Of a DNA stretch of 64,000 bases, positions 4,210 to 58,162 are shown in pieces; within the stretch, counting starts at the first letter, position 1, and every line of letters begins with the position of its first letter. A model generated the notes under the pieces. That model made no database searches and was not told where the DNA came from. It was given only the letters and a program-made list of their open reading frames with translations. The position numbers and the translations under genes are program-made. The stretch is from Candidatus Magasanikiibacteriota bacterium (GTDB taxonomy: Bacteria > Patescibacteriota > Patescibacteriia > Magasanikbacterales > UBA922): positions 326,612 to 390,611 of the forward strand of contig JBAYVA010000001.1 of the NCBI GenBank assembly GCA_041674805.1, in the 5' to 3' direction.

Positions 4210-4310
4210 ATTTCATGAAAACACTAGAACATTAAAACATTAAAACAAACTTAAACACTATTTGCAAAATTGTTTAGTAAAAATGCACCAATCCATCAAA
4301 ATTTAAAAAA

Positions 4311-4345
4311 CACCCCGTCTTTCACGAAAAGCGGGGTGTTTTTAT
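4311..4345. terminator. bidirectional Rho-independent terminator (recQ / ftsX convergent)
   Basis: caccccg-tctttcacgaaaag-cggggtg stem followed by TTTTT. It is flanked on both sides by 'ttttaatg'-type short repeats. Confidence 0.7.
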
Positions 4346-4372
4346 GTTTTAATGCTTTAATGTTTTTATGAG

Positions 4373-5284
4373 TTACGTCCTAAGATATCTATTCATTGCA
4401 AAACCACTAGAAATCATAGTGAGTAACAAAACTATCACAAATTCTCCTCCCAAAACAAAAAGTAAATTTTCTGATAAATATGATGACAACAAATTTTGTT
4501 TTTCAAAGATAACACCAATATATGGATCCAAAATTTTCAAAAAGAAATTTACCATCACATAAGTCAAAGATACACTAATAACACTAAATATAAAAGATTC
4601 TATCAAATAAGGGCCTCTAATAAACCAACTTGTAGCCCCTACAAGGCGTTTTATGCCTATTTCAGCACGTTGGGTATATATTGCGACTCTTATAGTATTA
4701 AAGATGATTATAAACGAAATTATCGCAAATAAAATTGTTAGAAAATACGTAAATTTTTGTACATTGGTAGTGATAGAATGAATTCTATTTATAGCCGTCT
4801 GAGTGTCTCCAAAAGTCTTGGCTTCAATAATATTTTCATATTCTGGCACACTCAAAGCTTCTATTATTTTTTCATAATCTTTTGGCTCACGAGTTTTGAT
4901 AATCAAAGTTGGACCCAAAGGATTTTCTGTCAATTCATTCAAAGAATCCAAAACATCTGGATTGTCAGCATAAACTGTTTTGAAATTTTCAAAAACTTCT
5001 TCTCTTGTCATAAAAGTTTCTTTTTCTACTTCTGGAAAAGAACCAACATAATCTCTAATTTCAGTAATTTCTTCTTCGGTTGCTTCTGGATCAAAATAAA
5101 TACTCACGTCTATTTGTTTTTTTACAGCAATGATAGATTCATCGGTCAAAATTTTTACCACCACCAAAGTATTAATAGATAAAAGCATCAAAACCAAAAT
5201 AAGTACTGTCATAATAGACAAACTCATATTGCGTACAATTTCTTGAAAAGAAAATTTTATAATACGAAAAAATCCTGCAAACAT
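4373..5284 (-). CDS. ftsX: cell division ABC transporter permease FtsX
   Basis: FtsX-like topology: a TM helix, a large extracytoplasmic domain and three C-terminal TM helices. The track ORF extends to 5353 and would overlap ftsE by 65 nt, so the internal Met at 5282-5284 (MFAGFF…) immediately after the ftsE stop is the more likely start. Confidence 0.7.
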   Translation of the reverse strand: MFAGFFRIIKFSFQEIVRNMSLSIMTVLILVLMLLSINTLVVVKILTDESIIAVKKQIDVSIYFDPEATEEEITEIRDYVGSFPEVEKETFMTREEVFENFKTVYADNPDVLDSLNELTENPLGPTLIIKTREPKDYEKIIEALSVPEYENIIEAKTFGDTQTAINRIHSITTNVQKFTYFLTILFAIISFIIIFNTIRVAIYTQRAEIGIKRLVGATSWFIRGPYLIESFIFSVISVSLTYVMVNFFLKILDPYIGVIFEKQNLLSSYLSENLLFVLGGEFVIVLLLTMISSGFAMNRYLRT

Positions 5285-6102: not shown

Positions 6103-6183
6103 GTAAAAAAATACAAATTACAATTTATAAAATACTTTTATAATAATTGAAATTTTTTTATTTTTAATTGTAATTTTTTATAG

Positions 6184-6268
6184 TGCGGATAAGAAGATTC
6201 GAACTTCTATTTTTGATTACAAAAAAATTTTTTCTATAATCAACGTAATGCCATTATACTATACCCGC
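6184..6268 (-). tRNA. aberrant tRNA-like gene with a 14-nt insertion in the anticodon-loop region (identity unresolved; possible pseudo-tRNA)
   Basis: Reverse complement shows canonical acceptor GCGGGTA/TATCCGC, T8, D-loop AATGGCA with G18G19, G26 and T-arm AGAAG-TTCGAAT-CTTCT. Between the anticodon stem halves TTGAT…ATCAA lie 21 nt (tatagaaaaaatttttttgta) instead of 7. The arm can also fold as a 7-bp stem ttgatta/taatcaa with a 17-nt A6T7 loop. Confidence 0.45.
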
Positions 6269-30831: not shown

Positions 30832-33144
30832 TTATTTAGCAATTTTCGCGTAAAGATTTTTTTGGAAAGTGAAAAACATTTTACGAATTTGATCCACATT
30901 GCCCAAATGTTTTTCAGCATCAGCCAAAGCATGATATTTGAGATTAAGTAAAACTGGCAATTGATCTTCACCAAGTTCTTCCACACCTTTTTCAGTATAT
31001 TTATCCAAAATAAAATCTATAAAGTCTTTTTGCTTATCATCAAGTTTTTCCAAAATTTTGTCTTTTGTTTTAGATACTCTTTCCTCACGAGAAACTTTTG
31101 GATTGAGAAAAGAAATATAATTGAGGACATCAAACAAATCACTATTTTCAGCGTCAACGATTTTTTGCAAAGTTTCCAGCTCTACTGGACCAAAGCCAAG
31201 TTCAGCAATACTATCAAGAAAAGCTTTTCTAGTCGTAGGATTTGACCAAATTTTTCGCAGTTCTTCTTCACTTTTGAAAAAGTCTGGCATTTTTTCAAAC
31301 ATATTGTTCATAAATTCTTCGACAGAAATTGGCTTGCCATCAGCACTCCAAAAAGAAGTAGAAATCATATGTTGAATTTCTCTTTCTTTACCATCACGAA
31401 GCTTTATTTTCAATTTTGGTTTTGGTTCTTGTCGTGGTTCTGGTTCAGTAATTATTTTAGCAATTTCTTTATCTTTTGGTTCTTTTATTTTTTTGTCTAT
31501 AGTCACTTCAATTGGTTCACCATCCCATTCTGGATCAGAAAAATGTTTGTAAGCATCGACAAAATCATAAATAGTAAAATATTCTTTGCCATCAAAAAGT
31601 CTGGTACCGCGTCCGACAATTTGTTTGAATTCAATCATCGAATTGACTGGACGCATCAGGACAATATTGCGGACATTGCGCGCGTCGACGCCGGTAGAAA
31701 GTTTTTGTGATGTAGTAAGAATTGTTGGAATAGTCTTTTCATTGTCTTGAAACTCACGCAAAAATTGTTCACCATGAGCACCGTCATTGGCAGTGACACG
31801 CACACAATAATTTGGGTCTTTACTATCTTTCATTTGGTTTATCAAATCACGAACAGCCAAAGCATGATCTTGATTGGCACAAAAAATAATTGTTTTTTCT
31901 TGTTTGTTTATTTCATCCAAAACAATTCTCACTCTTTTGGCTTCACGTTCTTTGATGTGTATTATTCTATTGAAATCTGGTTCTTCATAAATACGACCTT
32001 CTTCTATATCACCTTCAATAATCTGATCGTCAGATGTATAAACATAAGTATCTAAAGTAGTTTGTACACGTTTTACTTTGAAAGGAGTAAGAAAACCATC
32101 GTTGACACCTTCTTTGAGAGAATACGTATAAACTGGTTTACCAAAATAATCATAAGTATCAGCATTGTCTTTTCTTTTTGGTGTAGCGGTAAGACCAAGT
32201 TGCACAGCAGGTGAAAAATAATTCAAAATTTCACGCCAAGTACTTTCGTCATTTGCTCCGCCACGATGACACTCATCAATAATAATAAAATCAAAAAAGT
32301 CTTTAGGATATTCGCCAAAATATGGTGCGCCATTTGGACCACTCATGAAAGTCTGAAAAATAGTAAAAAATATACTACCACTTTTTGGCACGCCGCCTTT
32401 TTTACGAATATCTAGTGGGTTGATACGTACGAGAGCATTTTCTTCAAAAGCTGAAAAAGAGTTGAAAGCTTGATCTGCCAAAATATTTCTATCAGCCAAA
32501 AACAAAATGCGAGGACGACGTTTACCATTTCTTTCTAGATTCCAACGACTTTGAAACAATTTCCAAGCTATTTGAAAAGAAATAAAAGTCTTACCAGTAC
32601 CTGTTGCCAAAGTAAGAAGTATTCTGTTTTTTTCTTCAGCCACAGCAGACAAAGCATTGTTGACTGCAATTTCTTGGTAATATCTAGGAGTTTTGCCACT
32701 ACCAGCATCTTCAAACGGTACAGCATCAAATTTTTCTTTCCAAGTATTTTCTGCACCAAAAGTCTTGTGCCAAAGTTCTTCAGGTGTCGGAAAATGCAAA
32801 ACAGTTTTTTCTTCACCAGTTTCTAGCGACATTTCATAAATTTCACGACCATTGCTAGCGTAAGTATAATTGATTTGTAATTTGTGAGCATAAGCTTTGG
32901 CTTGGGCAACACCTTCACCAACGGCAATCTCCAAAGACTTCGCTTCTACGACTGCCAATTTACGATTTTTGTATACCAAAATATAGTCGGCTATTTCCGC
33001 TTTATTATTAAACAAACCAACACTACCAACACGATCATTAGTAATGCGGAATTCACGCAAGATTTTTGAATTTTCTAATACTCCCCAGCCAGCCTCCTTG
33101 AGCTTTGGGTCGATGTACTCAGCCCGTGTTTCGGCTTCATTCAT
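30832..33144 (-). CDS. hsdR: type I restriction enzyme R subunit HsdR
   Basis: HsdR N-terminal EAETRAEYIDPKLKEAGW; helicase motifs I LATGTGKT and II IIIDECHRG; ATP-dependent translocase domain. The track start at 33210 is probably too early; MNEAETR at 33144 is more likely. Confidence 0.8.
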   Translation of the reverse strand: MNEAETRAEYIDPKLKEAGWGVLENSKILREFRITNDRVGSVGLFNNKAEIADYILVYKNRKLAVVEAKSLEIAVGEGVAQAKAYAHKLQINYTYASNGREIYEMSLETGEEKTVLHFPTPEELWHKTFGAENTWKEKFDAVPFEDAGSGKTPRYYQEIAVNNALSAVAEEKNRILLTLATGTGKTFISFQIAWKLFQSRWNLERNGKRRPRILFLADRNILADQAFNSFSAFEENALVRINPLDIRKKGGVPKSGSIFFTIFQTFMSGPNGAPYFGEYPKDFFDFIIIDECHRGGANDESTWREILNYFSPAVQLGLTATPKRKDNADTYDYFGKPVYTYSLKEGVNDGFLTPFKVKRVQTTLDTYVYTSDDQIIEGDIEEGRIYEEPDFNRIIHIKEREAKRVRIVLDEINKQEKTIIFCANQDHALAVRDLINQMKDSKDPNYCVRVTANDGAHGEQFLREFQDNEKTIPTILTTSQKLSTGVDARNVRNIVLMRPVNSMIEFKQIVGRGTRLFDGKEYFTIYDFVDAYKHFSDPEWDGEPIEVTIDKKIKEPKDKEIAKIITEPEPRQEPKPKLKIKLRDGKEREIQHMISTSFWSADGKPISVEEFMNNMFEKMPDFFKSEEELRKIWSNPTTRKAFLDSIAELGFGPVELETLQKIVDAENSDLFDVLNYISFLNPKVSREERVSKTKDKILEKLDDKQKDFIDFILDKYTEKGVEELGEDQLPVLLNLKYHALADAEKHLGNVDQIRKMFFTFQKNLYAKIAK

Positions 33145-33152
33145 AAATAAAA

Positions 33153-33338
33153 TTATTTTCCTCCGTATCTTTTTTCTGCTTCTCCTTCTTTTAATTCTTT
33201 GCCAGACCATCTGCCAAAACGTGCCCCACAGTCTTTACAATCAATTTCACTGACACCATCATAACGTTCAGGACTGTCATAAGAGTACTCTACATAAATA
33301 ATATTTTTACTACCACATTTTTTACATTTTTTGTCCAT
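33153..33338 (-). CDS. small zinc-ribbon protein
   Basis: 61 aa with CKKCGS…CKDCGA (CxxC-x29-CxxC), wedged between the Fic gene and hsdR and overlapping the hsdR start. Confidence 0.4.
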   Translation of the reverse strand: MDKKCKKCGSKNIIYVEYSYDSPERYDGVSEIDCKDCGARFGRWSGKELKEGEAEKRYGGK

Positions 33339-33342
33339 ATGG

Positions 33343-34536
33343 TTAATTTTTATTATTTAAAGATGCTGGAATAAAACTATTTTTTTCAAGTATATGTATA
33401 GCCCCTCGCAATAAATAATTATTGGCAAATCCTAAAGTATATACTCTTCCTTTGGGATTGATAGAAATAAGCATTTTTTTGTCTTTAAGCCTTTTTAGAA
33501 TTCTAGAACGCTGTACAGAAGATTCTTCTCCAATTATTTTTTCTAAATCTGAAGATTTGATAATCATATCTTTACTTTTAACCAAGTATGCAAGTATTTC
33601 ATGTTCACGTTTTGTAATATGTTCATTATCCAAAGCAAAAGACAACATAGGTAACAAAATATTATTTGTCATATATGAAAGGTCTAACAATTTATCAATT
33701 TTTTCTATTTCTTCACGCAAACCTTCCAAAACATAAGAACACCACTGCAAAGTTTTTTCCTCTTCTCCTGTATCTGCCAAAGATAACATTTGATAATATT
33801 TATCACGGTCCATGCAAAAGACAGCTGTTGGATTCAAAATCCTACCATTTTTTACTTGAAAACGTTGTTTTATCAAAAGTGCATAAGTAAACATTCTCAC
33901 AAGACGACCATTGCCATTGTCAAAAGGATGAATCCAAGCCATACGATGATGTGACAAAGCAACAACCAAAAGATGATATTGAGAATCCAGAGGTTGGTTT
34001 ATGAATTTTATAAATTCCTCAAAATAATCTGGAACTTTCATAAAATCAGGAGGAACATGTTCTGCTTTACCAATAGAAACATTTACTGGTCTTAATTGAC
34101 CTGGGTATCTTGATCCCTCACCATTTGGTGAAGGTGTGAGACCTTCTACCAATATCTTGTGAATTTCAGAAATCAAAGCTCTATCTATTTTTGTTTTATT
34201 ATTTACATTATTTTCTATAAATTCAATAGCTCTTTCAATATTAGAGATCTCTCTGTCTTTTTCGGATTTACTATTTTTTGCTTTATTTTCAATAATCTTT
34301 TCTACATATTCAGCCAAAGTAGTTCTATTTCCTTCAATACGGGCAGAACCTATACTTTCTAAAATCTGAAAAATATTCTTTAATTGAAAGAATATATAAG
34401 GAGGAACTGGACCGCCAAGTTGTTTTACACGCAATTTTTCTAATTCAATAATAGTATTGGCCAGTTTGCTATTCCATTTTGGCTCATAAAGCTTAAAAGG
34501 AATATCTTTGAATTTTGGCTTATTTTCAGAAGTCAT
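33343..34536 (-). CDS. Fic/DOC family protein (AMPylase-like) with C-terminal winged-helix
   Basis: Canonical Fic motif HPFDNGNGRLVRMF with Fic_N-like N-terminus. It is embedded in the hsd operon. Confidence 0.8.
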   Translation of the reverse strand: MTSENKPKFKDIPFKLYEPKWNSKLANTIIELEKLRVKQLGGPVPPYIFFQLKNIFQILESIGSARIEGNRTTLAEYVEKIIENKAKNSKSEKDREISNIERAIEFIENNVNNKTKIDRALISEIHKILVEGLTPSPNGEGSRYPGQLRPVNVSIGKAEHVPPDFMKVPDYFEEFIKFINQPLDSQYHLLVVALSHHRMAWIHPFDNGNGRLVRMFTYALLIKQRFQVKNGRILNPTAVFCMDRDKYYQMLSLADTGEEEKTLQWCSYVLEGLREEIEKIDKLLDLSYMTNNILLPMLSFALDNEHITKREHEILAYLVKSKDMIIKSSDLEKIIGEESSVQRSRILKRLKDKKMLISINPKGRVYTLGFANNYLLRGAIHILEKNSFIPASLNNKN

Positions 34537-34645
34537 ATAGACTATTTAACATATATAGCTATATATTAGCTTATATTAGCTATTTTGTCAAGTGGATAGA
34601 TTATTGTCATTTAACATTTATCTTTTTAGACATTTAACATCTTTT

Positions 34646-35860
34646 TTACAACTCCCCTGCAAAGGCCTTTTTCAAAACAGATTTCTTGAGTTCTTCGAGA
34701 CTAGCCAATTTCTTCATATATATTTCCTCTAGTTTCTTAGTTTCAGCTGAAAGTGCGTCGAGCTTGGCGACGATGGATTTTTGTTCGGTGAGAGATTTTG
34801 GATAATTTAAAATAATTTGTTTTAAAGCACCACCATTAAATTGAGGTTGAGCTGAACCTGCAGAAAGTTGATTGACTTGATCCCAATAGATTTTAGATTT
34901 TGAAAAATGCCAATATAATTTACTAAAAATTTCTTTTTTAAATTTCATTCTAATAAGATATGATGCAAAAACTGAGGGTTCATCATTTTCAAAAAGCAAA
35001 ACATTTCCAGCAGAAGCTCCTGTTCTCGCCATTAACAAATCATTATTATTTAAAAGATATTTTTCAGCCTCTTTAAAAGAATCAACATACATCTTATTTT
35101 CTTTTGTAAGTAAACCATTTTCATCAGTATCTGTAATTCTTACAAATCGGTACTTTCCTTTATTTTTAGCTTTGGTAGTATAACCATATTCTACATCACA
35201 AATATCTCCTAAACTTTTTTCTTCCCACTTTTGACCTTCGACTTTTGACTTTTGACTTGTGAAAACACTATTCAAATAACTCTCAAAGACCTCCTTACTA
35301 TTTTTCAAATTCTTTTCAGTATTTGCTTTGGCTGTTTCAATGCCAGCGAAGACTTCGTCGAGTATTTTTACGATGTGGTGTTGGGTGGGGAGAGGAGGGA
35401 GAGGGATTTCAAAATTTTTTATTTGTTCTGTACTCAAATTTGGTTGGGCTGAGCCCATTGATATTTTTAAATTTTCTTCAATTTTAGTTGATAAAAAATA
35501 ATATAAATAATCCTTCACTAAATCTTTTTTTGGTTTAAATTTTCCTACACGCTGATTCAAATAAAATATTTCATCAGTATCACAAACAGCTAACTTTCCA
35601 GTTGTTGCGCCAGACATTGCAATTACCAGATCACCTTTTAAAACTTGATATTTATCAAAATTTTCTTTATAACTTTTTTTGTCAAAAAATACAAGTCTAT
35701 TATAAGAAATTCCATCATTTTGAATATTCGAAATTCTTAAAACAGGAAAACCATTCTCCTTAAATAATTTACTCTTAAAAGCAAATCCATTTTGAAAATC
35801 ACAAACTTCACTAAGTTTTTTTGTTTGCCAATTATTTTTTGTCATAGTAAAACTTTCCAT
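34646..35860 (-). CDS. hsdS: type I restriction-modification specificity subunit HsdS
   Basis: Two target-recognition domains separated and followed by conserved coiled-coil spacers (…PLPPLPTQHHIVKILDEVF… and …QKSIVAKLDALSAETKKLEEIY…). Confidence 0.8.
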   Translation of the reverse strand: MESFTMTKNNWQTKKLSEVCDFQNGFAFKSKLFKENGFPVLRISNIQNDGISYNRLVFFDKKSYKENFDKYQVLKGDLVIAMSGATTGKLAVCDTDEIFYLNQRVGKFKPKKDLVKDYLYYFLSTKIEENLKISMGSAQPNLSTEQIKNFEIPLPPLPTQHHIVKILDEVFAGIETAKANTEKNLKNSKEVFESYLNSVFTSQKSKVEGQKWEEKSLGDICDVEYGYTTKAKNKGKYRFVRITDTDENGLLTKENKMYVDSFKEAEKYLLNNNDLLMARTGASAGNVLLFENDEPSVFASYLIRMKFKKEIFSKLYWHFSKSKIYWDQVNQLSAGSAQPQFNGGALKQIILNYPKSLTEQKSIVAKLDALSAETKKLEEIYMKKLASLEELKKSVLKKAFAGEL

Positions 35861-36452
35861 TTTCTATTCTATTAGGTAAATTATTGAATATCTCTAATAC
35901 AAAATCATGGTAGTCTTCAATAATTTTTATTAAGTCAGATATTAAAAGATATCTATTATTTATACATATACTTTTATAATCTTCGCTTACATCCAAAAAT
36001 AAATCTTTTTTAAAAGTATTATAAAAAATATCTTCATTTATATGCTCTACTCTATTACGTATTTTAGAGACATTATATTTTTTTAGTCTATTTATAGTTT
36101 TTTTATCTATATATTTTAATAGATTTATTTTTCTTTTATCATCATTCTTACCATTTATTATAATATCAAAAATTTTTATAAATCTATTTATAGCATAAAG
36201 GCAATCTTCTAAATTATTTATAATATTTATTCTATAAATTAATTTGTCACCTGTTTTTATTTCTTCTTCTAAAGATTCTTTTACTTCTTCATATTTAAAC
36301 CAAGATTTATCAACTAACCTAAAAAGTAATCTTATATACAATTTACTTTTTTCATCTAAAACTTTTTCAGATCCGACTAAAATAATAGGTAAAAACCTAC
36401 TAACTAAAGGAAAATCAATTTTAATGTTGGGAATTTTATTATTATTTTTCAT
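35832..36452 (-). CDS. hypothetical protein (partner of the RelA/SpoT-domain gene; very AT-rich)
   Basis: 206 aa, Lys/Asn/Ile-rich with no known motif. It overlaps the upstream RelA/SpoT gene by 11 nt and hsdS by 29 nt, so the genes are translationally coupled. Confidence 0.4.
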   Translation of the reverse strand: MKNNNKIPNIKIDFPLVSRFLPIILVGSEKVLDEKSKLYIRLLFRLVDKSWFKYEEVKESLEEEIKTGDKLIYRINIINNLEDCLYAINRFIKIFDIIINGKNDDKRKINLLKYIDKKTINRLKKYNVSKIRNRVEHINEDIFYNTFKKDLFLDVSEDYKSICINNRYLLISDLIKIIEDYHDFVLEIFNNLPNRIENGKFYYDKK

Positions 36453-37482
36453 AATCTATTATTTTTTCTTCAATCACATCTAATAACTTTACAAATTCCT
36501 GTGTATCAAGAAAATAATTTGGATAAAGTTTTTCTAAATTATTTATATCATCTACAGAAACTAACACAATCTCCGTGTTTTTATCATTTAGATACTTTTT
36601 TTCTAACTTCGTATATTGATTATTTGCTTGATCTAATTTTGACTCAGAATATCGTTCAATATTTAATAATTTATTTTTAAAATTTAAAGAAATAAGGTAA
36701 TATTTACCTCTTTCTTTCTTTGTTTCTTTAGTAGAAATTTGAGTAGCAACCGAAAAACCTTCTATTTTATCTCTTAATTTTAATTCTTTAATTCTTTTAG
36801 ATATTTTTTGAAAAAATATTATATCAATATCATCATATTCCAACATGATAAATGCTTTGCTAATTTCTTTAAATAAATCAAGTAATTCTGCATCACCAAA
36901 ACTTTGTTTTAATGGTTGTCTTAAATATGTTCCTATAACTTCAACCGCTGTTGCCCAGGCATGATGTATTTTTGTTCTTAATTGAATTTCAATTCTGCAT
37001 TGACAATCTATAGAAACTTTTTTGTCATATTTATAAATTAAATGGATACTTCTATATCCACTTTCTTTTGGTTCTTTTATATAATCTTTTTCTTTTAAAA
37101 AAGTTGATTTGAAAGCTGCTTCTTGTTCTCCTTTTTTTAATAAATCTCTTAATTTATAGACCTCTTCTAAATTATCAACAACTGCACGTAAACCACCAAC
37201 ATCTTGCATTTGAGATAAAGACATGTTTTCTTGAATTTTTAACTTACTGATTATCGATGGTGCTCGCTTTAATCTCTGAGAAATTAAAACGTTACTATTT
37301 ATTGATTTAGATTTTCTTATTAAAGACATTCTAAAAACAATCAATGGATGGATATGAATTGATCTAAAGTTTTCTAAAATTTCAATAGCTAAATCTTGTG
37401 TTATTTTTTCATCAGATATACCAGCAAGAACATCCCCAGCTTTATCTATTTCCTTTTTTGAATATTTTAAAAATGACTTCAT
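36442..37482 (-). CDS. RelA/SpoT-domain nucleotide pyrophosphokinase (small alarmone synthetase-like; toxSAS/CapRel-like) with about 140-aa C-terminal extension
   Basis: Synthetase-fold motifs RLKRAPSIISKLK, DVGGLRAVV, YRSIHLIYKY and EIQLRTKIHHAWA. An unrecognisable C-terminal domain of about 140 aa follows. It overlaps hsdM by 4 nt. Confidence 0.7.
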   Translation of the reverse strand: MKSFLKYSKKEIDKAGDVLAGISDEKITQDLAIEILENFRSIHIHPLIVFRMSLIRKSKSINSNVLISQRLKRAPSIISKLKIQENMSLSQMQDVGGLRAVVDNLEEVYKLRDLLKKGEQEAAFKSTFLKEKDYIKEPKESGYRSIHLIYKYDKKVSIDCQCRIEIQLRTKIHHAWATAVEVIGTYLRQPLKQSFGDAELLDLFKEISKAFIMLEYDDIDIIFFQKISKRIKELKLRDKIEGFSVATQISTKETKKERGKYYLISLNFKNKLLNIERYSESKLDQANNQYTKLEKKYLNDKNTEIVLVSVDDINNLEKLYPNYFLDTQEFVKLLDVIEEKIIDYEK

Positions 37483-38930
37483 AATATATTCTTAATCTTC
37501 TCAAAAATTTCTCCACTATCCTCATCCAAACCCTTTATTTCCTCCAAAATCTCCTTCGGCTCCCTCAAAACATCCTCTTCTTTCTTGTTTGGGTTCTTCA
37601 CTGATAAATCAAAAGTAGCTTGATCAATATTTTTCACATCCACCATCCAAGAATTAGCACTACTTTCCTTCTTTTCTTGAAGCTTCACAAACTCAGCTAA
37701 GTCCACTTCACTCAATGGATTGCCCTTGCCAAGATTTCTATCTAGATTGAGCTGATAATACCAGATTTTTCTTGTTGGAGCGCCTTTTTCAAAAAATAAG
37801 ACAATAGTCTTCACACCCGCACCCTGAAAAGCACCACCTGGTAGATCTAGGATAGTATGCAGATTGCAAGTCGTAAGTAATTCTTTGCGTAGTGAGACAC
37901 TGGCATTGTCAGTGTTGCTCAAAAAAGTATTTTTGATGACAATCCCAGCTCGTCCACCAGCTCGGAGCATCTTGATAAAATGTTGTAAAAAGAGAAATGC
38001 TGTCTCGCCAGTTTTTATCGGGAAATTTTGTTGAATTTCTCTACCAATACCTGCTCCAAAAGGTGGATTTGCTAAGATAACATCTTTTCTGTCTTTTTCT
38101 TGTATGTCATTGATATTTTCTGCTAGTGTGTTCATGTGACGGATATTTGGTGCCTCAATACCATGTAAAATCATATTCATAATACCAATAATGTAGGCAA
38201 GAGATTTGATTTCTTTTCCGTAAAAAGTTTTGTTTTGCAAAGTTGTCATTTGACTTGAAGAAAGCTTGGCTTGATTTTCTGTCAAATATTTATATGCCTC
38301 CACCAAAAATCCAGCACTTCCACAAGCACCATCATAAATTGTTTCTCCAATTTTTGGATCTACTATTTTAACAATTGTTTTGATGAGTGGACGTGGTGTG
38401 TAATATTCACCACCATTTCGCCCAGCATTGCCCATATTTTTTATTTTTGACTCATAAAGATGTGAAAGTTCATGTTTTTCTTCATAAAGTCGAAAATGCA
38501 TTTTGTCTACCACGTTCAAAATTTCTCGTAATTTATAACCACTAGAAATTTTGTTTTTGAGTTCACTAAAAATTTCACCGATTTTGTATTCAATAGTATT
38601 TGGATCTTCAGCTTTAAATTTTTTTAAATAAGGAAAAAGTTTATTATTTACAAAGTCTCTCAAATCGTCACCATCAAGTGCTTTATTGTAATCCAATTTT
38701 TCATCACCATTTTTAGGACAAGCCCAAATATTCCAGAGATATTCTGGAGACAAAATATATTCATAATTTTTACCTGACAAAATGGCCGACTTTCTTTTGT
38801 CTTCTTCTAAATCATCAAGGTATTTCAAAAATAAAATCCAAGAAGTTTGTTCTACATAATCTAACTCCGTTCCGCAACCAGAGTCAGTATGAAGTATACT
38901 GTCAATGCTTTTGAATGATTGTTCAAACAT
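37479..38930 (-). CDS. hsdM: type I restriction-modification N6-adenine DNA methyltransferase HsdM
   Basis: HsdM N-terminal domain, SAM-binding motif DGACGSAGFL and catalytic motif LANPPFG. Confidence 0.85.
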   Translation of the reverse strand: MFEQSFKSIDSILHTDSGCGTELDYVEQTSWILFLKYLDDLEEDKRKSAILSGKNYEYILSPEYLWNIWACPKNGDEKLDYNKALDGDDLRDFVNNKLFPYLKKFKAEDPNTIEYKIGEIFSELKNKISSGYKLREILNVVDKMHFRLYEEKHELSHLYESKIKNMGNAGRNGGEYYTPRPLIKTIVKIVDPKIGETIYDGACGSAGFLVEAYKYLTENQAKLSSSQMTTLQNKTFYGKEIKSLAYIIGIMNMILHGIEAPNIRHMNTLAENINDIQEKDRKDVILANPPFGAGIGREIQQNFPIKTGETAFLFLQHFIKMLRAGGRAGIVIKNTFLSNTDNASVSLRKELLTTCNLHTILDLPGGAFQGAGVKTIVLFFEKGAPTRKIWYYQLNLDRNLGKGNPLSEVDLAEFVKLQEKKESSANSWMVDVKNIDQATFDLSVKNPNKKEEDVLREPKEILEEIKGLDEDSGEIFEKIKNIL

Positions 38931-38975
38931 AGTTTTTTATTGTTTTAGTGATACTATTTTAACAGAGATCAGAGG

Positions 38976-39062
38976 TTTTGTAAATCTAACAAAAAATCAC
39001 CTTTTAAGATGATTTTTGCTAAAAAAATTTCAGTTGGTGACAATTTGTCACCGACTCACCTA
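38976..39062. promoter_or_regulatory. conserved ~85-nt intergenic element, copy A (terminator hairpin + perfect 17-nt palindrome) upstream of hsdM
   Basis: Hairpin aaaatca-ccttttaaga-tgatttt with a T-run, plus palindrome ggtgacaatttgtcacc (39036-39052). It is near-identical to 41123-41207. Confidence 0.5.
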
Positions 39063-39992
39063 ATCCGCATTAGACAATCCCTCAAATACCTCAGTAGCAT
39101 AGACCACTTCGGCAAAATCCACCATCGTCGCATAATCTTTGACAGCAAACCAACCCTTCAGACCATCTTTCTTCTCAATCTGACACCATTTTTTGTTGTC
39201 ACAAGCAATGATTTTTACTATCTCATCTTTTTGAAGTGTTGTGATTATAGTACTGTCGTCTTGTGGTGATCTCTTAAGAGCTAAGGCTTGCAAAAGTGTT
39301 ACTTCTGTATCTCTCGCATAAAAATCTTTTGGAATATTTACCAATATATTATTTGTAGAAAGACTATAATCATCAGCAAAAAACCAAGTATCCAAAATAC
39401 TTCCACGAGTTTGGGTTGTCAATTTTCCTTTACCATCAAAAAGCATGTTTTCATAAATACCTTGTATAGTTCCTAATGACTTCAAATTTTTTCCGTCATA
39501 TTGATAAAAAGTTGTCGCATAATCACTACTAGGACCTTCGTCAGTGACAGCAATCTCTTTTAGCTTGTCACTTTTGTCTATATCCACAATACCAAAATAT
39601 CCCGCAGGCACATTTCCTGGTGTGGTAGTCCCCATATCGTCAATATGTAATATTGCGACATAACTATAATTTATTTGTTTGAATTCAATACTAATGTTTT
39701 CTTTTTTGCCATCACCATTTAGATCTTCTGCCTTTTCACGATATTGATTAGATTCCAAAGGTTTTGATTCCAAATAATTATTGTAAGCATCTAGATCTTG
39801 TGGAAATTGTTCTTGTTTTTCAGAAAACATAACATCTTGATTTTGTTCTTTTTCCAAATTCAAAACATCTTTTGAAAAGAAAAATTTGTTCATTATCAAA
39901 AAAAATAACACCAAAAAAATGATACCACCTCCCAAATATATATTAATTTTTTTATTACGAGACATACAAATGATTAGAATAAAACATAACAA
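39060..39992 (-). CDS. hypothetical membrane-anchored protein with C-terminal bacterial SH3-like domain
   Basis: N-terminal TM helix. The C-terminus …LQKDEIVKIIACDNKKWCQIEKKDGLKGWFAVKDY resembles SH3b. Confidence 0.45.
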   Translation of the reverse strand: MLCFILIICMSRNKKINIYLGGGIIFLVLFFLIMNKFFFSKDVLNLEKEQNQDVMFSEKQEQFPQDLDAYNNYLESKPLESNQYREKAEDLNGDGKKENISIEFKQINYSYVAILHIDDMGTTTPGNVPAGYFGIVDIDKSDKLKEIAVTDEGPSSDYATTFYQYDGKNLKSLGTIQGIYENMLFDGKGKLTTQTRGSILDTWFFADDYSLSTNNILVNIPKDFYARDTEVTLLQALALKRSPQDDSTIITTLQKDEIVKIIACDNKKWCQIEKKDGLKGWFAVKDYATMVDFAEVVYATEVFEGLSNAD

Positions 39993-40085
39993 CCTTTGAT
40001 ACTTATCATACTACTCTAGTTTAGTTATTTAAGCAATAAAAAATCACACTAAAGTTAATATAGTTCAATAATTTTTGAAGATAAA

Positions 40086-41075
40086 CTATTTCTTCATATT
40101 GAGCAAAGTCGTAACCAAACTTGTCATTTGATCCTTTTTGCTTGGATGACTCTCCGCAATAAGCAAAGTAAGAGCTGTCAACGCACTTGGATTGATATTT
40201 ACTCTTCCTTTTATCTTAGCTTTACGTAAAAACCAAACAAAAGCAAAAGCTCCACTACGCTTATTGCCGTCGGTAAAAGGATGATTTTTGACCATAAAAT
40301 ATAATAGATGAGATGCCTTTTCTTCAGCTGTCTTATACAAAGAATTACCACCAAAAGACTGCATCACATTACCAACAATACCTTCTACACTAGCCACATT
40401 TTTTTCTTGAGCAAATAACTCTGAGGCTTCACCTTTTTTGATAAGTTCTTGACGAAGTTTGGAGATAGCCTCTGTCAATTCTTGACTTGTCAATTTTACT
40501 GCTTTTCTACTGCTTCCAATCTTATTTAATTTGTCTTTGTCATAAGCGTCCAGTGCCACCCAAGTACTAGCAAATTCTTTTATTAAATCCAAAACCATTT
40601 TTGGATCAAGAGCTACATGTTCTGGCAATAAATTTTGGATACTATTTACAGTCTTCAAAAAAGAATTGTAATTTTTTACAATCTGTTTGCGATTGATAGT
40701 ATAACCTTTTGTTATATGTTCTTTTAAAATATTTGTTGCCCACTTACGAAAATTAGTTGCTGTTTTAGAATTTACTCTGTAGCCAACTGAAATTATAGCA
40801 TCTAAATTATAATATTCTATATTACGTCTAATCTGACGATTTCCTTCTAATTGAACTGTTGCATTTTTTGCAACAGTTGACTTTTTATCTAACTCTTTTT
40901 CTTTGTATATTTTACTCAAATGACGTGAAATAACAGATTTATCACGTTCAAAAACAGTAGCTATTTGATCTAAATTTGCCCAAATTGTATCATTTGAAAA
41001 ATCATTGCGTAATTCAATAGAACCATCTTTTGCTTGATAAATTACAACATCATTTTTTAATTTTTTGTTTTTCAT
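40086..41075 (-). CDS. RhuM-family / Doc-type Fic-fold protein
   Basis: N-terminus VVIYQAKDGSIELRNDFSNDTIWANLDQIATVFERDKSVISRHLSKIYKEKEL (RhuM-like) and C-terminal Doc-type motif HPFTDGNKRSGAFAFVWFL. Confidence 0.6.
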   Translation of the reverse strand: MKNKKLKNDVVIYQAKDGSIELRNDFSNDTIWANLDQIATVFERDKSVISRHLSKIYKEKELDKKSTVAKNATVQLEGNRQIRRNIEYYNLDAIISVGYRVNSKTATNFRKWATNILKEHITKGYTINRKQIVKNYNSFLKTVNSIQNLLPEHVALDPKMVLDLIKEFASTWVALDAYDKDKLNKIGSSRKAVKLTSQELTEAISKLRQELIKKGEASELFAQEKNVASVEGIVGNVMQSFGGNSLYKTAEEKASHLLYFMVKNHPFTDGNKRSGAFAFVWFLRKAKIKGRVNINPSALTALTLLIAESHPSKKDQMTSLVTTLLNMKK

Positions 41076-41122
41076 AAATTTGTAAATTATTTTATATATA
41101 AACTATAGCAAAATTTAGTAAT

Positions 41123-41207
41123 TTTGTAAAAAACAAAAAACCACCTTTTTCAGATGATTTTTTGAAAAAAATTTTCAACCGGTGACAAATTGTCACCAAC
41201 TCACTTA
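41123..41207. promoter_or_regulatory. conserved ~85-nt intergenic element, copy B (hairpin + perfect palindrome) upstream of the RhuM/Doc gene
   Basis: aaaacca-cctttttcaga-tgatttttt hairpin and palindrome ggtgacaaattgtcacc (41181-41197), in the same orientation and arrangement as copy A. Confidence 0.5.
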
Positions 41208-41218
41208 TTTTTAATTCC

Positions 41219-43381
41219 CTACTTCCTCCTTACCAAGGAGTACCACCATAACAAAAAAATACTAAGCAAAATTTCTAATACTAACAAACTATAAAAAACA
41301 AATTTCAAATTACTTTTGTCAGGCTGAAACCAAGCGATATCCACTTTGCTATACTTCTCTATATTCATTTTTACATCATAAAAACTAACATCCTTTTCTC
41401 CTCTTAGCCAACGAAACCAAGTCTGTTCAGAATAGACCAACAACGATTCTTCTTTGGTGAAATAGCTAGAAAATAATTGATGATTGACTTGTATATGTCC
41501 GAGTTGTGGTACAAAACGCATATTTTGCAAAGTATCCAAATTGGCTTCTCGCAAGATATCCAATTGTTTGCCATAATAATAACTAGCTCCCAAAAACTGA
41601 ACATAAAAAGAAAAAACAAACAAAAATAAAAATACTATTTTTTTGCTAACTGACATGACCTTTTCTTCAAAAAAATAAATCAAAGGAAGATGCAATAATA
41701 CCATAATAGCGACCAGCTTCCTCACAGACCAAGTCTCATCTGTCCAATAACTAAAAGGAGCAGTAATCAGCAAAAGCAATAAAAAAGACACCAAGAGAAA
41801 AACAGCCGTTTCTTTTTGTTCACGCCAAAATCTTTTCCAGACAAACAAAGTCAAAATAAGCCAAGGACTAAACAAAAAAATACTTTTGCCTATAGAAAAA
41901 AATATACCATAAAATCCTTCCCACCAAGTCCAAATTTGGAATTCATGACTAAGCGAATACACGCCAGTCCAAGCACCATATACTAAATATTGAGCAAGCA
42001 AGACAGATAAGATAGCTACAAAAGCTGGTAAAAATAATATTATGAAATGCTTCAGATAATCTTTTTTTGTCAAAGATTTGTTTTGTCTATCTACCAAAAA
42101 AACAAACAGTAGCACAGGCAAAGCAAAAATTATGGCATAAGATTTAGCCGTGACAAGTAAAGCAAAAGTTATAGCCACCCACCACAAAGAAACTCTGTTA
42201 TTTTTCCACTTGAGCAACATCAACAATAATAATGTCAAATAAAAAGTTTGTTGGTATTCCATACCCAAATTGCTATAAGGCCAAATAATGGAACCAGTAG
42301 CTATCACCACAGGAAGCAACAAAGACGGATACAACTTTTTGCGCAAATACCAAACTACATAAACTAGCAACCAAACAGTCAAAGCAGAATAAAAAATAGG
42401 TACAATACTCAAAAAAGTAAAATTAGAAAAAGCAAATAATTTAAAAATTAAAATAAAAGGAACATACAAAAACAAAGAAGATATTCCAGCTCTTTTCGCC
42501 GCATATTCACCAGAAAACAATGACATAGCTGAATCAGCTGTTTCTTGTTCATAGCCACCAAAATTCATTTGCCAAGTCAAAGTAAAAAGAAACAAAACAA
42601 AAATAAAAACTAAAAAAGCCTGCAAATGCAACAAAATATTTGGAAAACGAAGACGCAAAAGAGTCCAAATAGCTACGACCCCATCACGCCAATTTATTTT
42701 TTTGCCTTCATCTTTCGATCTTGGATTATACGAAATAGCAATTTCTGGAATCTTGATACCATCTTTGGCTAGATAAGAAGTCACTTCAGGACAAAAAGCA
42801 AAACCCTTTTCACACAGTGGCATGCTTTGCAATTTTTTTGTTGCTATCAGTTTGTAGCAAGTCGCTTCATCTGTCATCTTTTGACCAAACAAAAAATTGG
42901 CAACGTAAGTAACCAATTTGCCACCCCAATAAAAAAAGAAAGTACCACGTTTATTATTTTCTTTATTTCGAGAACCATAAACTACTGGCAAATTTTCATT
43001 TTTAGCGTATTTGTACAATCTTATGATATCATCAGGATCATACTCCAAATCAGCATCTTGTATGATAGTATATTCACCCACAGACTCTTTCAATCCCGTA
43101 TGTATAGCCCCGCCTTTGCCTTGGTTTTTTTCATGCAAAATAACCTTGAAATTTTCCAAATTATTAATTTGTTTTTGGTAATCCAACAAAATATTTATAC
43201 TCTTGTCAGACGAACCATCGTCAACAGCTATTACCTGATACATCAAACCAGATTTTTCTAGTGATACAAACAATTTATCCAAAAGTAGTAGTAGAGTCTT
43301 TTCTTCGTTATATACAGGCACAATTACACTAATATCTATGTTCATAAAATATGTGTTTAAATAACGCTTACACTTTAACAA
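41219..43381 (-). CDS. fused GT2 glycosyltransferase / large GT-C-like (ArnT/PMT-like) polytopic membrane domain protein
   Basis: N-terminal GT-A motifs ISVIVPVYNEEKT…AVDDGSSDKS…DADLEYDP, followed by about 450 aa with many TM helices. Confidence 0.7.
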   Translation of the reverse strand: MLKCKRYLNTYFMNIDISVIVPVYNEEKTLLLLLDKLFVSLEKSGLMYQVIAVDDGSSDKSINILLDYQKQINNLENFKVILHEKNQGKGGAIHTGLKESVGEYTIIQDADLEYDPDDIIRLYKYAKNENLPVVYGSRNKENNKRGTFFFYWGGKLVTYVANFLFGQKMTDEATCYKLIATKKLQSMPLCEKGFAFCPEVTSYLAKDGIKIPEIAISYNPRSKDEGKKINWRDGVVAIWTLLRLRFPNILLHLQAFLVFIFVLFLFTLTWQMNFGGYEQETADSAMSLFSGEYAAKRAGISSLFLYVPFILIFKLFAFSNFTFLSIVPIFYSALTVWLLVYVVWYLRKKLYPSLLLPVVIATGSIIWPYSNLGMEYQQTFYLTLLLLMLLKWKNNRVSLWWVAITFALLVTAKSYAIIFALPVLLFVFLVDRQNKSLTKKDYLKHFIILFLPAFVAILSVLLAQYLVYGAWTGVYSLSHEFQIWTWWEGFYGIFFSIGKSIFLFSPWLILTLFVWKRFWREQKETAVFLLVSFLLLLLITAPFSYWTDETWSVRKLVAIMVLLHLPLIYFFEEKVMSVSKKIVFLFLFVFSFYVQFLGASYYYGKQLDILREANLDTLQNMRFVPQLGHIQVNHQLFSSYFTKEESLLVYSEQTWFRWLRGEKDVSFYDVKMNIEKYSKVDIAWFQPDKSNLKFVFYSLLVLEILLSIFLLWWYSLVRRK

Positions 43382-56653: not shown

Positions 56654-58162
56654 TTATCTTTTTATAATTTTCTTGTCAAATTTTTTTATATAAAAAACAA
56701 GTAACAAGTATAAAGTAATCATGAGCCACAAAGGAATAGACAAATCAATCGTCGCAAAATGCAAATTTGAAAAAAAAGTTACTACCACCACAATATACTT
56801 CATTGCAACAAAAGACAACCAAGACAACACCTCAGCCACAGGTGCAAAAATAAAACTGAAAACTAAAACAAAAAAACCACTAAACATTATCCAAGGTAAA
56901 ATCCATAAAATCAAAATATTTACCACAGGCGCGACAATAGACAAACGATTGAATTGATAAAGTATTAGTGGCAAAGTAGCTACAATCGCTGAAATAGTGG
57001 TTAATAAAGATGCTTTGATACCAAAAAATTCTGGAATTTTTTGAAATTTACGCTCCAAAATTGGTGACAAATAAACAAGACCCAAAGTAGAAATAAAAGA
57101 CAATTGAAAACCAGCATCCCAAATCAAAACATAAGGATTTTGTAAAGCCATAATAAAAGCTGTCAAAATCAACACATTGGCAATATGAGCTTTTCGACCA
57201 ATTTGTTTTGTGAGTAAAACAATAATTCCCATAATCCCCGCTCTCACTACTGAAGCACTTGCACCTGCAAAAATTACAAAAGTAATTATACCAAAAACAA
57301 TCAAATAAAAAGCTTTCTTACGTGGGATATACAAATAAGTACAAAGTGAAATCAAAATAGAAGAAACAATAGTAATATTATAACCAGAAATAGCCACAAT
57401 ATGAGTGACACCTGTCCGACTAAATAATTCATTCAATTCTCCCAGTCCACCACGATAACCATACAAAAGTCCAGCCATAAAACTAGCATAAGGTTCGTGC
57501 CAAATAATATTTATTTTACTAGCGATGCTACTTTTAAAAGCAAATATTTTGGAAAAAAACCACTTACCTTGATTGATAGCTATTCTTTCTATACTACTAG
57601 GCATACAAACCACAAAAACATCATAACGAGCCAAATATTTGTCATAACGAAAAGATTCTACTGGTTCTGGTTTTTGCAAAGTACAGGCTACTTTCAATTT
57701 GTCACCGTAATTATAACGTGGATACAAACTATGTTTTAAATACACTTTACCTTTTACTTCTGTTTTATTTATAAAAAAATTTTTATTATTTTGATCATAG
57801 ATATTTTCTACAGATAAAATATATCTTACTCCATCTAGTCTAATATCTGGTTCTGCACTTACCACAGCTTCTACTATTTTATTTTCCCCTAAATAAAATA
57901 GTAAATTATTTTGATTATTATTAGGTATAGTAACCAGATAACGCCAAATACCTAAAGAAAAAAACAAACAACACAATAAAACAAAACGCGTTTTTTTATT
58001 TTGCCAAAAAATAACTAACAAAAATAATAAAACAAAAAAAATTAGATACAAGTAAAATTTATCAAAATGCGAATCATAAATAGATTGGAAAGCAACAGAC
58101 AATAAAAAAGAAAAACAAAACATAAAAAATGTTTTGCTTTTTGAATTCAATAATTTAGACAT
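56654..58162 (-). CDS. comEC: ComEC/Rec2 DNA-uptake channel (membrane competence domain, lacking the C-terminal MBL domain)
   Basis: N-terminal OB/DUF4131-like region followed by a polytopic 'Competence' domain (…SRTGVTHIVAISGYNITIVSSIL…). Confidence 0.7.
   Translation of the reverse strand: MSKLLNSKSKTFFMFCFSFLLSVAFQSIYDSHFDKFYLYLIFFVLLFLLVIFWQNKKTRFVLLCCLFFSLGIWRYLVTIPNNNQNNLLFYLGENKIVEAVVSAEPDIRLDGVRYILSVENIYDQNNKNFFINKTEVKGKVYLKHSLYPRYNYGDKLKVACTLQKPEPVESFRYDKYLARYDVFVVCMPSSIERIAINQGKWFFSKIFAFKSSIASKINIIWHEPYASFMAGLLYGYRGGLGELNELFSRTGVTHIVAISGYNITIVSSILISLCTYLYIPRKKAFYLIVFGIITFVIFAGASASVVRAGIMGIIVLLTKQIGRKAHIANVLILTAFIMALQNPYVLIWDAGFQLSFISTLGLVYLSPILERKFQKIPEFFGIKASLLTTISAIVATLPLILYQFNRLSIVAPVVNILILWILPWIMFSGFFVLVFSFIFAPVAEVLSWLSFVAMKYIVVVVTFFSNLHFATIDLSIPLWLMITLYLLLVFYIKKFDKKIIKR

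Follow-up and report, generated by a model that had tools for sequence, protein, structure and literature searches.

Template switching tends to turn inverted repeats into perfect ones (Lavi et al. 2018, PMC5941160; Lovett-lab, PMC7202029). In a different field, phage defence candidates have been defined by their embedding in restriction-modification (RM), BREX (bacteriophage exclusion) and DISARM (defence island system associated with restriction-modification) loci; that work deals with proteins only, describes no nucleotide palindrome and leaves the cause of the embedding open (Payne et al., bioRxiv 10.1101/2024.01.29.577857). Here we analyze a stretch of 64,000 nucleotides (hereafter the window) from a Candidatus Magasanikiibacteriota bacterium (assembly GCA_041674805.1, contig JBAYVA010000001.1, forward-strand positions 326,612 to 390,611), in which two direct repeats, each containing a perfect 17-nt palindrome, bracket two genes next to a type I RM operon. 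We suggest, with confidence that is evenly balanced, that the repeats are compound junction modules made of a relic palindrome from a Bro-N gene, a terminator and a promoter, and that they mark the 3´ ends of gene cassettes and aid their shuffling.

The window has a GC content of about 31% and its genes lie mainly on the minus strand. The 17-nt sequence GGTGACAAWTTGTCACC occurs exactly twice in it, at 39036-39052 and 41181-41197; on the plus strand the two perfect palindromes read GGTGACAATTTGTCACC and GGTGACAAATTGTCACC, respectively, and both are of the GGTNACAAWTTGTNACC type. They are direct repeats offset by 2145 nt, and a sequence search confirmed the places, order and orientation assigned to them by an initial sequence-only reading of this DNA. 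An exact match to the 16 specified bases is expected about 1e-5 times per window. No third copy is present in the 64 kb, even with up to three mismatches, a level at which shuffles yield 0.24 matches; a 13-nt half-site match at 57695-57707 falls in coding sequence and was rejected as a further copy, being a chance match. These copy counts, as well as the searches for regulators and recombinases given below, cover the 64-kb window of a genome of about 744 kb. Chance or low complexity was rejected as a source of the repeats because of the exact 17-mer present twice and the 32-34-nt identity to genes in other phyla. The bracketed genes, both on the minus strand, are indeed those first proposed: an exported SH3b-domain protein recognized by domain scan (39060-39992) and a RhuM gene with a Fic/Doc domain, which matches the PADLOC model PDC-S23 (40086-41075).

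Each palindrome is embedded in a module of about 120 nt, and the two modules are 78-84% identical to each other (78% over 72 nt ungapped, 83.6% over 73 nt gapped). Of the near-identical elements of about 85 nt described at first, the repetition itself and the A-run/stem/T-run hairpin in both copies hold, whereas near-identity does not. The similarity also runs past the coordinates given in that description, into a promoter-like TTTACA-N17-(TG)TAnAnT. On the minus strand a module consists of a palindromic core of 32-34 nt, a T7 run, a terminator and the promoter-like site, in this order. Its consensus start is GTGAGTY-GGTGACAAWTTGTCACC-RRYTGAAA(A), 0-15 nt past the upstream stop codon. The core of copy 2 (41172-41204, minus strand) reads GTGAGTT-GGTGACAATTTGTCACC-GGTTGAAAA, with the palindrome at 41181-41197, and lies 15 nt after the stop codon of the GT2 gene; no open reading frame (ORF) passes through it. 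It is followed on the same strand by a T7 run (41165-41171), by an intrinsic terminator of A-tract, stem and T-tract (41134-41164) identified by terminator scoring and folding, and by the consensus match TTTACA-N17-TG-TATAGT (41102-41130) ahead of RhuM/Fic. In copy 1, also on the minus strand, the core GTGAGTC-GGTGACAAATTGTCACC-AACTGAAA (39028-39059, palindrome 39036-39052) abuts the stop codon of SH3b (39060-39062), and the frame through it is closed by stop codons on both sides (CGLGESVTNCHQLKFF). Then come the T7 run (39021-39027), the terminator hairpin AAAAATCATC-TTAAAA-GGTGATTTTTT (38991-39017, by folding) and the consensus match TTTACA-N17-TG-TAAAAT (38956-38984) ahead of hsdM.

The spacing between the start of the palindrome and the ATG of the next minus-strand gene is 106 nt at both copies (hsdM, 38930; RhuM/Fic, 41075), with 26 nt between each promoter-like site and its ATG. 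Promoters and terminators were called by their match to a consensus. A promoter scan found 39 sites against 38 expected, hence no overall enrichment; the two module promoters rank in the top five by score over 8 kb, each with an extended -10 of the TG type. Compared with shuffles, folding of the minus strand gave z = -4.1 and -3.5 for the two modules. The second hairpin of both modules has the stem-loop, the immediate U-tract and the location at a gene 3´ end that are typical of intrinsic terminators. The palindrome and T7 run are marginal as a terminator: the core 2 hairpin plus GAAAATTTTT scored terminator-like, copy 1 did not. Other terminators in the window are single A-tract/stem/T-tract hairpins and none of them carries an additional palindrome. 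In Rfam searches only tRNAs reach the gathering score and no family fits the modules; sub-threshold matches of 38988-39059 and 41133-41204 to plasmid RNAI (24-26 bits, where the gathering score is 47; E = 0.04-0.14) most likely reflect chance likeness of two consecutive stem-loops.

The origin of the core is revealed by a pattern scan for the 17-mer over 185,579 species genomes. At least 120 loci carry it, each from a different genome, with GC contents of 25-72%; retrieved comparison loci are labelled by L-numbers. In about 80-87 of the 120 loci listed, the palindrome is located inside an ORF of about 285 aa that combines a Bro-N domain (PF02498) with a DinD-like C-terminal half. PADLOC labels this protein PDC-S13; its names in public sources are antirepressor, BRO family protein and DNA-damage-inducible protein D. 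The codons of the palindrome are V-T-N-C-H, within the context ...RKYWNKLKERLKKEGSE-S-VTNCH-QLKM-AADGKKYLTD...SVPSPKAEP..., and hosts of the matching segment come from many bacterial and archaeal phyla. The motif as a private regulon of the present genome was rejected, since the genome scan shows it to be pan-prokaryotic and mostly coding. Copy 1 of the window shares an exact run of 34 nt, TGAGTCGGTGACAAATTGTCACCAACTGAAATTT, with the Bro-N coding sequence of a Moraniibacteriota genome (L008) and 32 nt with Bro-N genes of three other lineages (L001/L083/L091); the 34-nt run takes in coding flanks outside the dyad. Copy 2 shares exact runs of 25 nt with a Bro-N locus where the palindrome is in the coding sequence (L006) and with a non-coding orphan upstream of another Bro-N gene (L102), and its coding homology to Bro-N stops at the T7 run. 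The window cores are orphan copies of the Bro-N coding-sequence palindrome. The window itself has no Bro-N gene; tblastn yields no more than a fragment of 14 aa (E = 5.4). When Bro-N segments and the 36-nt core were compared by blastn with E. coli genomes, plasmids and phages, nothing matched. Among 153 loci, neighbours of Bro-N include tyrosine integrases (20), large serine recombinases (17), CI-like repressors (15), DUF262/GmrSD (11) and EcoRI-like methyltransferases (9). A tight linkage of Bro-N with type I RM was rejected, as it is seen in only a few of the 120 listed loci.

Relatives of the genome allow the history of the locus to be followed. One lineage (L122 and L377-L381) has the order RsmB-GT2-[Bro-N]-M50-like-L27-119aa-FtsW-MurG, in which GT2 is 68% identical to that of the window, the flanks of the slot are those of the window and Bro-N is the sole gene in the slot. 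There is no orphan core in this lineage, and the internal palindrome of its Bro-N is the compensated variant GGTCACAAATTGTGACC (VTNCD). The spacer between GT2 and Bro-N in L122 is homologous to the terminator, promoter, 5´ untranslated region (UTR) and first 13 coding nt (ATGAAAAACAAAA) of copy 2. The promoter, 5´ UTR and ATGAAAAACAAAA of copy 2 are homologous to the Bro-N promoter region of L204 as well. The latter (the same as L285-L292, from several aquifer samples) is a closer relative with about 83% nucleotide identity, and its order is a 190-aa ORF, module a, SH3b, module b, Bro-N, an EcoRI-like methyltransferase, a 301-aa ORF, GmrSD-HNH, more genes and the M50-like gene. Its Bro-N is intact and has an internal palindrome of the YEKIV type. 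The two modules thus bracket SH3b alone in L204, and SH3b together with RhuM/Fic in the window. The slot is a variable defence island. From this comparison we conclude that SH3b had its two flanking modules before the window and L204 lineages split, and that RhuM/Fic and the type I RM operon are specific to the window. No module is present near more distant SH3b relatives (L293-L296).

The core and terminator of copy 2 are 89.6% identical over 77 nt to module a of L204, and its promoter is 83% identical over 147 nt to the b-type Bro-N promoter. Copy 2 of the window is a recombinant of an a-type core and terminator with a b-type Bro-N promoter. Window and L204 cease to be homologous at a point between terminator and -35 box and not inside the palindrome, which therefore was not the crossover point. 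The unit of core and terminator follows three different genes, namely GT2, the 190-aa ORF and SH3b. In module a of L204 the palindrome has decayed (GGTCACAAAATGTAACC) and the terminator is intact. Module b is 95% identical between window and L204; special purifying selection on it was rejected, because it lies within a tract of 92-98% identity that also covers the 3´ half of SH3b. For the segment at 39.06-41.08 kb, a check of related strains had been proposed along with the repeats: it yielded the L204 arrangement, with modules around SH3b only, and no allele with a single repeat (an empty site) among the relatives compared. Two further observations concern these relatives. The Bro-N genes of L204 (5834-6667) and L122 (4063-4905) agree almost completely over their first 20 codons and again after about residue 105; between these points they differ in subfamily (YEKIV and VTNCD), a mosaic patch centred on the palindrome. 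Upstream of RsmB, L377, L379 and L380 carry differing RM fragments according to sample (Methylase_S alone or a fusion of N6_Mtase and Methylase_S), which points to another variable defence slot in the L122 lineage, on the opposite flank of RsmB-GT2.

The palindrome is not confined to the subfamily that donated the cores. For an unbiased sample, Bro-N genes were fetched by alignment of their C-terminal halves only; viral samples are partly redundant and distinct sequences were used. All Bro-N subfamilies have a palindrome at the same place, with arms that differ: GGTGACAAATTGTCACC in the VTNCH subfamily, GTTACAAATTGTAAC in VTNCN, GTCACAAATTGTGAC in VTNCD, ACTACAAATTGTAGT in TTNCS, CTTACAAATTGTAAG in LTNCK, CTGACAAATTGTCAG in LTNCQ, CAGTTGTACGATAATATCGTACAACTG in YDNIV and ACTGTACG-aaaaaat-CGTACAGT in YEKIV. 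Covariation fixes the codon pairs V/H, V/N, V/D, T/S, L/K and L/Q, and all of these except the last are exact reverse-complement codon pairs. Over 12 pairs in 52 distinct Bro-N sequences, pairing amounts to 88.5%, compared with 57.4 ± 1.4% in shuffles and 22-38% with a slid partner, and double-sided changes number 202 against 59 in shuffles. Kinship inflates the shuffle-based statistics; the slid, synonymous and positional controls are unaffected by it. Under synonymous recoding the longest perfect arm shrinks from 9.4 to 4.35 nt and the minimum free energy (MFE) weakens from -19.0 to -11.5 kcal/mol. A profile over 930 nt in 69 genes has a single peak, with arms of 9.2-9.35 nt compared with 3.7-4.9 nt elsewhere, and arms of at least 8 nt are found in 42 genes at the peak and in 0-3 elsewhere. 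This single peak rules out a generally hairpin-rich gene, and an apparent second hairpin near 'TETWWFSV' is not general. Among 954 stem pairs in 83 Bro-N and RhuM genes there are 4 G-T and 13 A-C mismatches. As G-T does not exceed A-C, wobble pairs are not tolerated and the constraint is symmetric between the strands, which is the expectation for DNA and not for a hairpin of the sense RNA.

The RhuM gene of the window contains the same feature. At 40854-40878 on the minus strand, in a position homologous to that of the Bro-N palindrome, it has AACTGTTGCA-aaaaa-TGCAACAGTT (as a whole AACTGTTGCAaaaaaTGCAACAGTT), a perfect 10+5+10 palindrome that encodes STVAKNATV. In an unbiased sample from viral contigs, arms of at least 10 nt are present at that spot in 25 of 31 distinct RhuM genes, for example CAGTTGTTGCAAattTTGCAACAACTG (which encodes SVVANFATTA) and TGGTTGTTCGGAaatTCCGAACAACCA. 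In ORF6N genes, the motif LRSQ[IF]VTS, the hallmark of the Pfam family, is encoded by the palindrome CTTGAGGTCACAAWTTGTGACCTCAAG (L297-L376, e.g. L313 and L309), and arms reach 9 nt or more in 28 of 50 distinct ORF6N segments. Two reading frames are in use for the 17-mer GGTCACAAATTGTGACC: it is read as aGG TCA CAA ATT GTG ACC in most ORF6N genes, and as ctG GTC ACA AAT TGT GAC Cag (VTNCD) in another ORF6N subfamily and in the Bro-N of L122. In all three families the palindrome comes just before a fixed protein motif, which is DGK.Y in Bro-N and RhuM and GGRRY.PYAFTE in ORF6N. The N/I variation in Bro-N and the I/F alternation in ORF6N both correspond to a flip of the centre base of the palindrome. 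The arms that pair by Watson-Crick rules only, the changes in both arms and this inversion of the centre base are the marks of a quasipalindrome. A cause at the protein level was rejected on account of the synonymous recoding, the reverse-complement codon pairs and the use of two frames; the conserved object is the nucleotide palindrome and not the peptide. It is probably kept perfect by a process at the level of DNA, which could be the correction of arms by template switching or selection on a DNA site. We found no description of a coding-sequence palindrome of Bro-N, RhuM and ORF6N (KilA-N) genes in Rfam or in the searchable literature, whose coverage is incomplete; the apparent novelty is thus one of absence of evidence, not of proof.

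Free-standing cores exist in other genomes as well. About 15-20 of the 120 listed loci are either such cores or Bro-N genes that end within about 10 nt past the palindrome (the latter in L010, L012, L048, L074 and L066). Some orphans stand directly after stop codons or between convergent genes (L018, L033, L070, L071). In L063, from an uncultured betaproteobacterium, the core forms the junction of hsdS and an embedded toxin-antitoxin pair within a related type I RM locus. There (4231-4935), an ORF resembling IS607 serine recombinases continues into a C-terminal piece of hsdS (..SLLHQAFSGQL) and from there through the orphan core; beyond the core stand a hairpin, a Phd/YefM-like start and an hsdR 64% identical to that of the window. 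In Gallionella (L116, 1700-3400), an orphan core, a truncated Bro-N with a VTNCY palindrome and an intact Bro-N of the YEKIV type follow each other in tandem; the arrangement appears to show upstream Bro-N copies decaying to cores. In two loci of Gammaproteobacteria/Legionella (L055, ~1400-1620; L064, ~2050-2110), GGTTACAWWWTGTAACC and GGTGACAANTTGTCACC are intergenic, just downstream of AbiEii toxin genes, and in L055 the array adjoins a GCGAACA tandem repeat and a tRNA-like fragment.

We propose the following course of events for the window, building on the anatomy of the modules, their Bro-N origin, the synteny, the chimerism and the family-wide covariation described above. The stretch from GT2 to the M50-like gene and L27 is a defence-island hotspot, the minimal content of which in relatives is one Bro-N gene. 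In the present genome this Bro-N would have been lost or replaced. Its remnants would be the palindrome, present twice, and a promoter with the first codons, now driving RhuM/Fic. Each module joins three parts: a 32-34-nt orphan copy of the Bro-N/DinD-like (PDC-S13) coding palindrome, a terminator, and a sigma-70-type promoter with an extended -10. The unit of core and terminator is located at the 3´ end of the gene, whichever it is, that precedes a cassette, and the repeats could supply homology for recombination that shuffles cassettes; copy 2 itself is a chimera of the two module types seen in L204. At its present place the palindrome would act at most as an extra 3´-end hairpin ahead of the terminator, and it would not be an operator of the two downstream promoters.

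Several observations weigh against this proposal. Three of the four orphan copies in the window and L204 are still perfect palindromes. The lack of an extra palindrome at other window terminators means that it is no general terminator feature, and the conservation of module b between window and L204 is uninformative inside its tract of high identity. The boundaries of orphans are sharp and recurrent (about 8 nt, 17 nt and 9 nt, with the right end RRYTGAAAW or ...TGAAAAT), and longer perfect dyads occur in non-coding DNA (31 nt in L070, 27 nt in L102, 25 nt in L093); such orphans look more like a discrete functional unit than like random decay. Others lie upstream of the ATG of Bro-N, at 31 nt in L093 and at 47 nt in L102 and L116 (Legionella, Nitrosomonadaceae/Gallionella), and arrays of 2-3 related palindromes are present in L055, L064, L025 and L076. 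Both patterns fit protein-binding sites. Moreover, a regulator or more copies may lie elsewhere in the approximately 744-kb genome. An operator would bind a dimeric protein, plausibly one with a winged helix of the KilA-N type (Bro-N, ORF6N, RhuM), and place the RM operon and RhuM/Fic under one regulator encoded elsewhere. Besides the upstream orphans, to which the module about 110 nt ahead of the L204 Bro-N can be added, and the arrays, this is supported by the strand-symmetric, Watson-Crick-only constraint in the whole family, as for duplex DNA sites, by the recurrence of the same 17-25-nt sequences in different gene families, reading frames and non-coding DNA, by the DNA-binding domains that Bro-N, RhuM and ORF6N all encode, and by the equal 106-nt spacing to both ATGs in the window. 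That spacing, however, follows from duplication of the whole module. The palindrome is poorly placed for an operator: from its centre to the -35 box downstream it is about 60 nt, and this interval holds a complete terminator. Pfam scans of all island ORFs and their neighbours found no small helix-turn-helix (HTH) or C-protein gene, in agreement with the first impression that none is visible, and none of the 120 best Bro-N homologues is on the contig of this genome. An upstream orphan is found in only about 3 of 124 Bro-N genes, and such orphans do not have the sequence of the palindrome that the neighbouring gene contains; subfamilies vary in their arms and in the length of the loop (3 to 7 nt); and the orthologous copy in module a of L204 has lost its symmetry. 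The shared operator of a dimeric HTH repressor for the RM operon and the Doc-like gene, which the sequence-only reading had put forward, does not find support in the position of the palindrome, and we consider operator function in the window rather unlikely. A broader form of the idea seems distinctly unlikely to us, too: the palindrome would be a functional sequence-specific DNA site, for self-recognition, as an operator or as a recombination 'address', in the coding sequences of the KilA-N-type families (PDC-S13, RhuM PDC-S05/S23, ORF6N) of bacteria, archaea and phages, and free copies would tie neighbouring cassettes, in the window the type I RM operon and RhuM/Fic, into the same control or mobilization.

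Recombination at the palindrome itself would explain how such genes embed in RM operons. The palindrome, with or without the hairpin, would in an attC-like manner be the point of cassette insertion or exchange, and the repeats would be attL/attR-like scars of a mobile SH3b, possibly together with RhuM/Fic. The direct repeats of core and terminator do bracket SH3b in L204 and RhuM/Fic with SH3b in the window, the unit stands behind three different genes, many Bro-N genes elsewhere end within about 10 nt past the palindrome, and in L063 a core with a hairpin marks the junction of hsdS and the toxin-antitoxin cassette. Tyrosine or large serine recombinases are near Bro-N in up to 37 of 153 loci (20 and 17, with overlap between the sets possible), and size and dyad symmetry of the palindrome resemble recombinase core sites. 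Yet integrases beside Bro-N are expected anyway for cargo at prophage ends; neither the window between 25 and 49 kb nor the L204 island encodes a recombinase; the relatives compared include no allele with an empty site, and the L122 lineage is without any core; the breakpoints between window and L204 fall between terminator and promoter, outside the palindrome; and the palindrome is perfect, without the asymmetry of attC (extrahelical bases, R/L boxes). Of the duplicated or mobile cassette that had been offered as the second explanation of the repeats, what stands is the variable island and the bracketing of SH3b by modules in L204, and not a dedicated site-specific exchange, which we regard as quite improbable. 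A role at the level of RNA seems very improbable. Here the minus-strand hairpin would stabilize the 3´ UTR, serve as the leading member of a tandem terminator pair or, inside Bro-N and RhuM mRNAs, control their translation or decay. The location directly after stop codons suits a 3´-end element, stable hairpins are predicted on the transcribed strand (z = -3.5 to -4.1), copy 2 with its T-run scores terminator-like, and the transcribed strand of copy 2, unlike its complement, allows the stem to be lengthened by G-U pairs. Selection on RNA alone would, however, tolerate G-U, which is no commoner than A-C in the 83 genes; the T-run begins 4-9 nt after the stem; the only Rfam likeness is the sub-threshold RNAI; and other terminators in the window do without such a hairpin. 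The junction modules proposed above, with homologous recombination between repeats and a palindrome of Bro-N descent, are therefore the reading we prefer.

The remaining genes of the island complete the picture. On the minus strand the order is RsmB, GT2 (41219-43381), copy 2, RhuM/Fic, SH3b, copy 1, hsdM, RelA/SpoT, a 206-aa ORF, hsdS, Fic and hsdR; downstream of hsdR come the convergent M50-like gene and L27. The RM operon (30832-38930, minus strand; domain scans and PADLOC) comprises the genes from hsdM to hsdR, and together with SH3b and RhuM/Fic it occupies the hotspot between GT2 and the M50-like gene. Exact look-up of the RhuM/Fic and hsdM proteins gave no match. Nested in the operon are a RelA/SpoT gene (PDC-S33, E = 1e-103) and an overlapping 206-aa ORF between hsdM and hsdS (35832-37482), the latter with no family match, and a Fic gene of the SoFic type (33343-34536) between hsdS and hsdR; one type I RM operon thus holds three nested candidate defence genes. 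Far from the island, at 6183-6268, ARAGORN predicts a tRNA of 86 nt to which it assigns no identity and whose 'anticodon' has four bases (atag); Rfam gives this segment a tRNA score of 51.5 bits. The prediction may reflect either a class II tRNA whose anticodon loop is unusual or a parsing error.

For the window, the suggested operator of an RM/Doc regulon gives way to a history that can be traced: a hotspot, a resident Bro-N that was presumably lost, and its palindrome and promoter surviving in repeated junction modules. More widely, a perfect DNA palindrome with arms of 11-12 bp occupies one fixed coding position in three very large families of DNA-binding proteins associated with phages and defence. 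That a nucleic acid is conserved here is indicated by four lines of evidence, i.e. the covariation of codon pairs, the palindrome-encoded LRSQ[IF]VTS, the 17-mer read in two frames and the free-standing orphans. If the palindrome is functional, it is a candidate cis-element that regulates or mobilizes genes embedding in RM systems, and a true functional DNA site would provide a mechanism for the embedding of defence genes in RM operons. Should it do no more than perpetuate itself, template-switch maintenance would here prevail over protein sequence, a remarkable example from nature. In both cases, orphans of this kind are to be expected when defence islands are annotated.

Compared with known systems, the modules show both shared and differing traits. 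Like the C-boxes of RM C-proteins, the palindrome is a dyad upstream of RM genes for which coordination of a defence operon was proposed; unlike them, it has no C gene, it is a single dyad instead of paired OL/OR boxes, it stands about 60 nt upstream of the -35 box behind a terminator, and it originates from Bro-N coding sequence. The second hairpin of the module is a textbook A-tract/stem/T-tract terminator of the bidirectional intrinsic kind, and the palindrome with its T7 run resembles a weak additional one; in contrast to intrinsic terminators, the palindrome is 4-9 nt away from the T-run, is absent from the other terminators of the window and has a coding origin. With integron attC sites the modules have in common a structure that is kept while the sequence varies, the location at cassette 3´ ends and direct repeats that bracket cassettes. 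They differ from attC in that no integrase is present, the dyads are perfect, short (25-31 nt) and without extrahelical bases, the cassettes carry their own promoters and no excision or insertion polymorphism is seen at the site. The short palindromic units after stop codons recall repetitive extragenic palindromic (REP) sequences and miniature inverted-repeat transposable elements (MITEs), but there are 2 copies in 64 kb, the 120 listed loci come from 120 genomes with one in each, and no RAYT or other transposase is seen; this copy number does not support a REP-like high-copy element.

Two further comparisons concern the systems named at the outset. As to the phage defence candidates of PADLOC (Payne et al., bioRxiv 10.1101/2024.01.29.577857), RhuM/Fic (PDC-S23), Bro-N (PDC-S13), RelA/SpoT (PDC-S33) and SoFic match their models, and the window is a typical case of embedding. 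As to the quasipalindromes maintained by template switching (PMC5941160; PMC7202029), the likeness extends to perfect Watson-Crick arms, changes in both arms, centre flips (N/I in Bro-N, I/F in ORF6N) and non-coding orphans that stay perfect or lengthen. The present palindrome differs from them in its fixed coding position in three huge families of bacteria, archaea and phages, where it dictates amino acids, is read in two frames and leaves behind orphans of about 33 nt.

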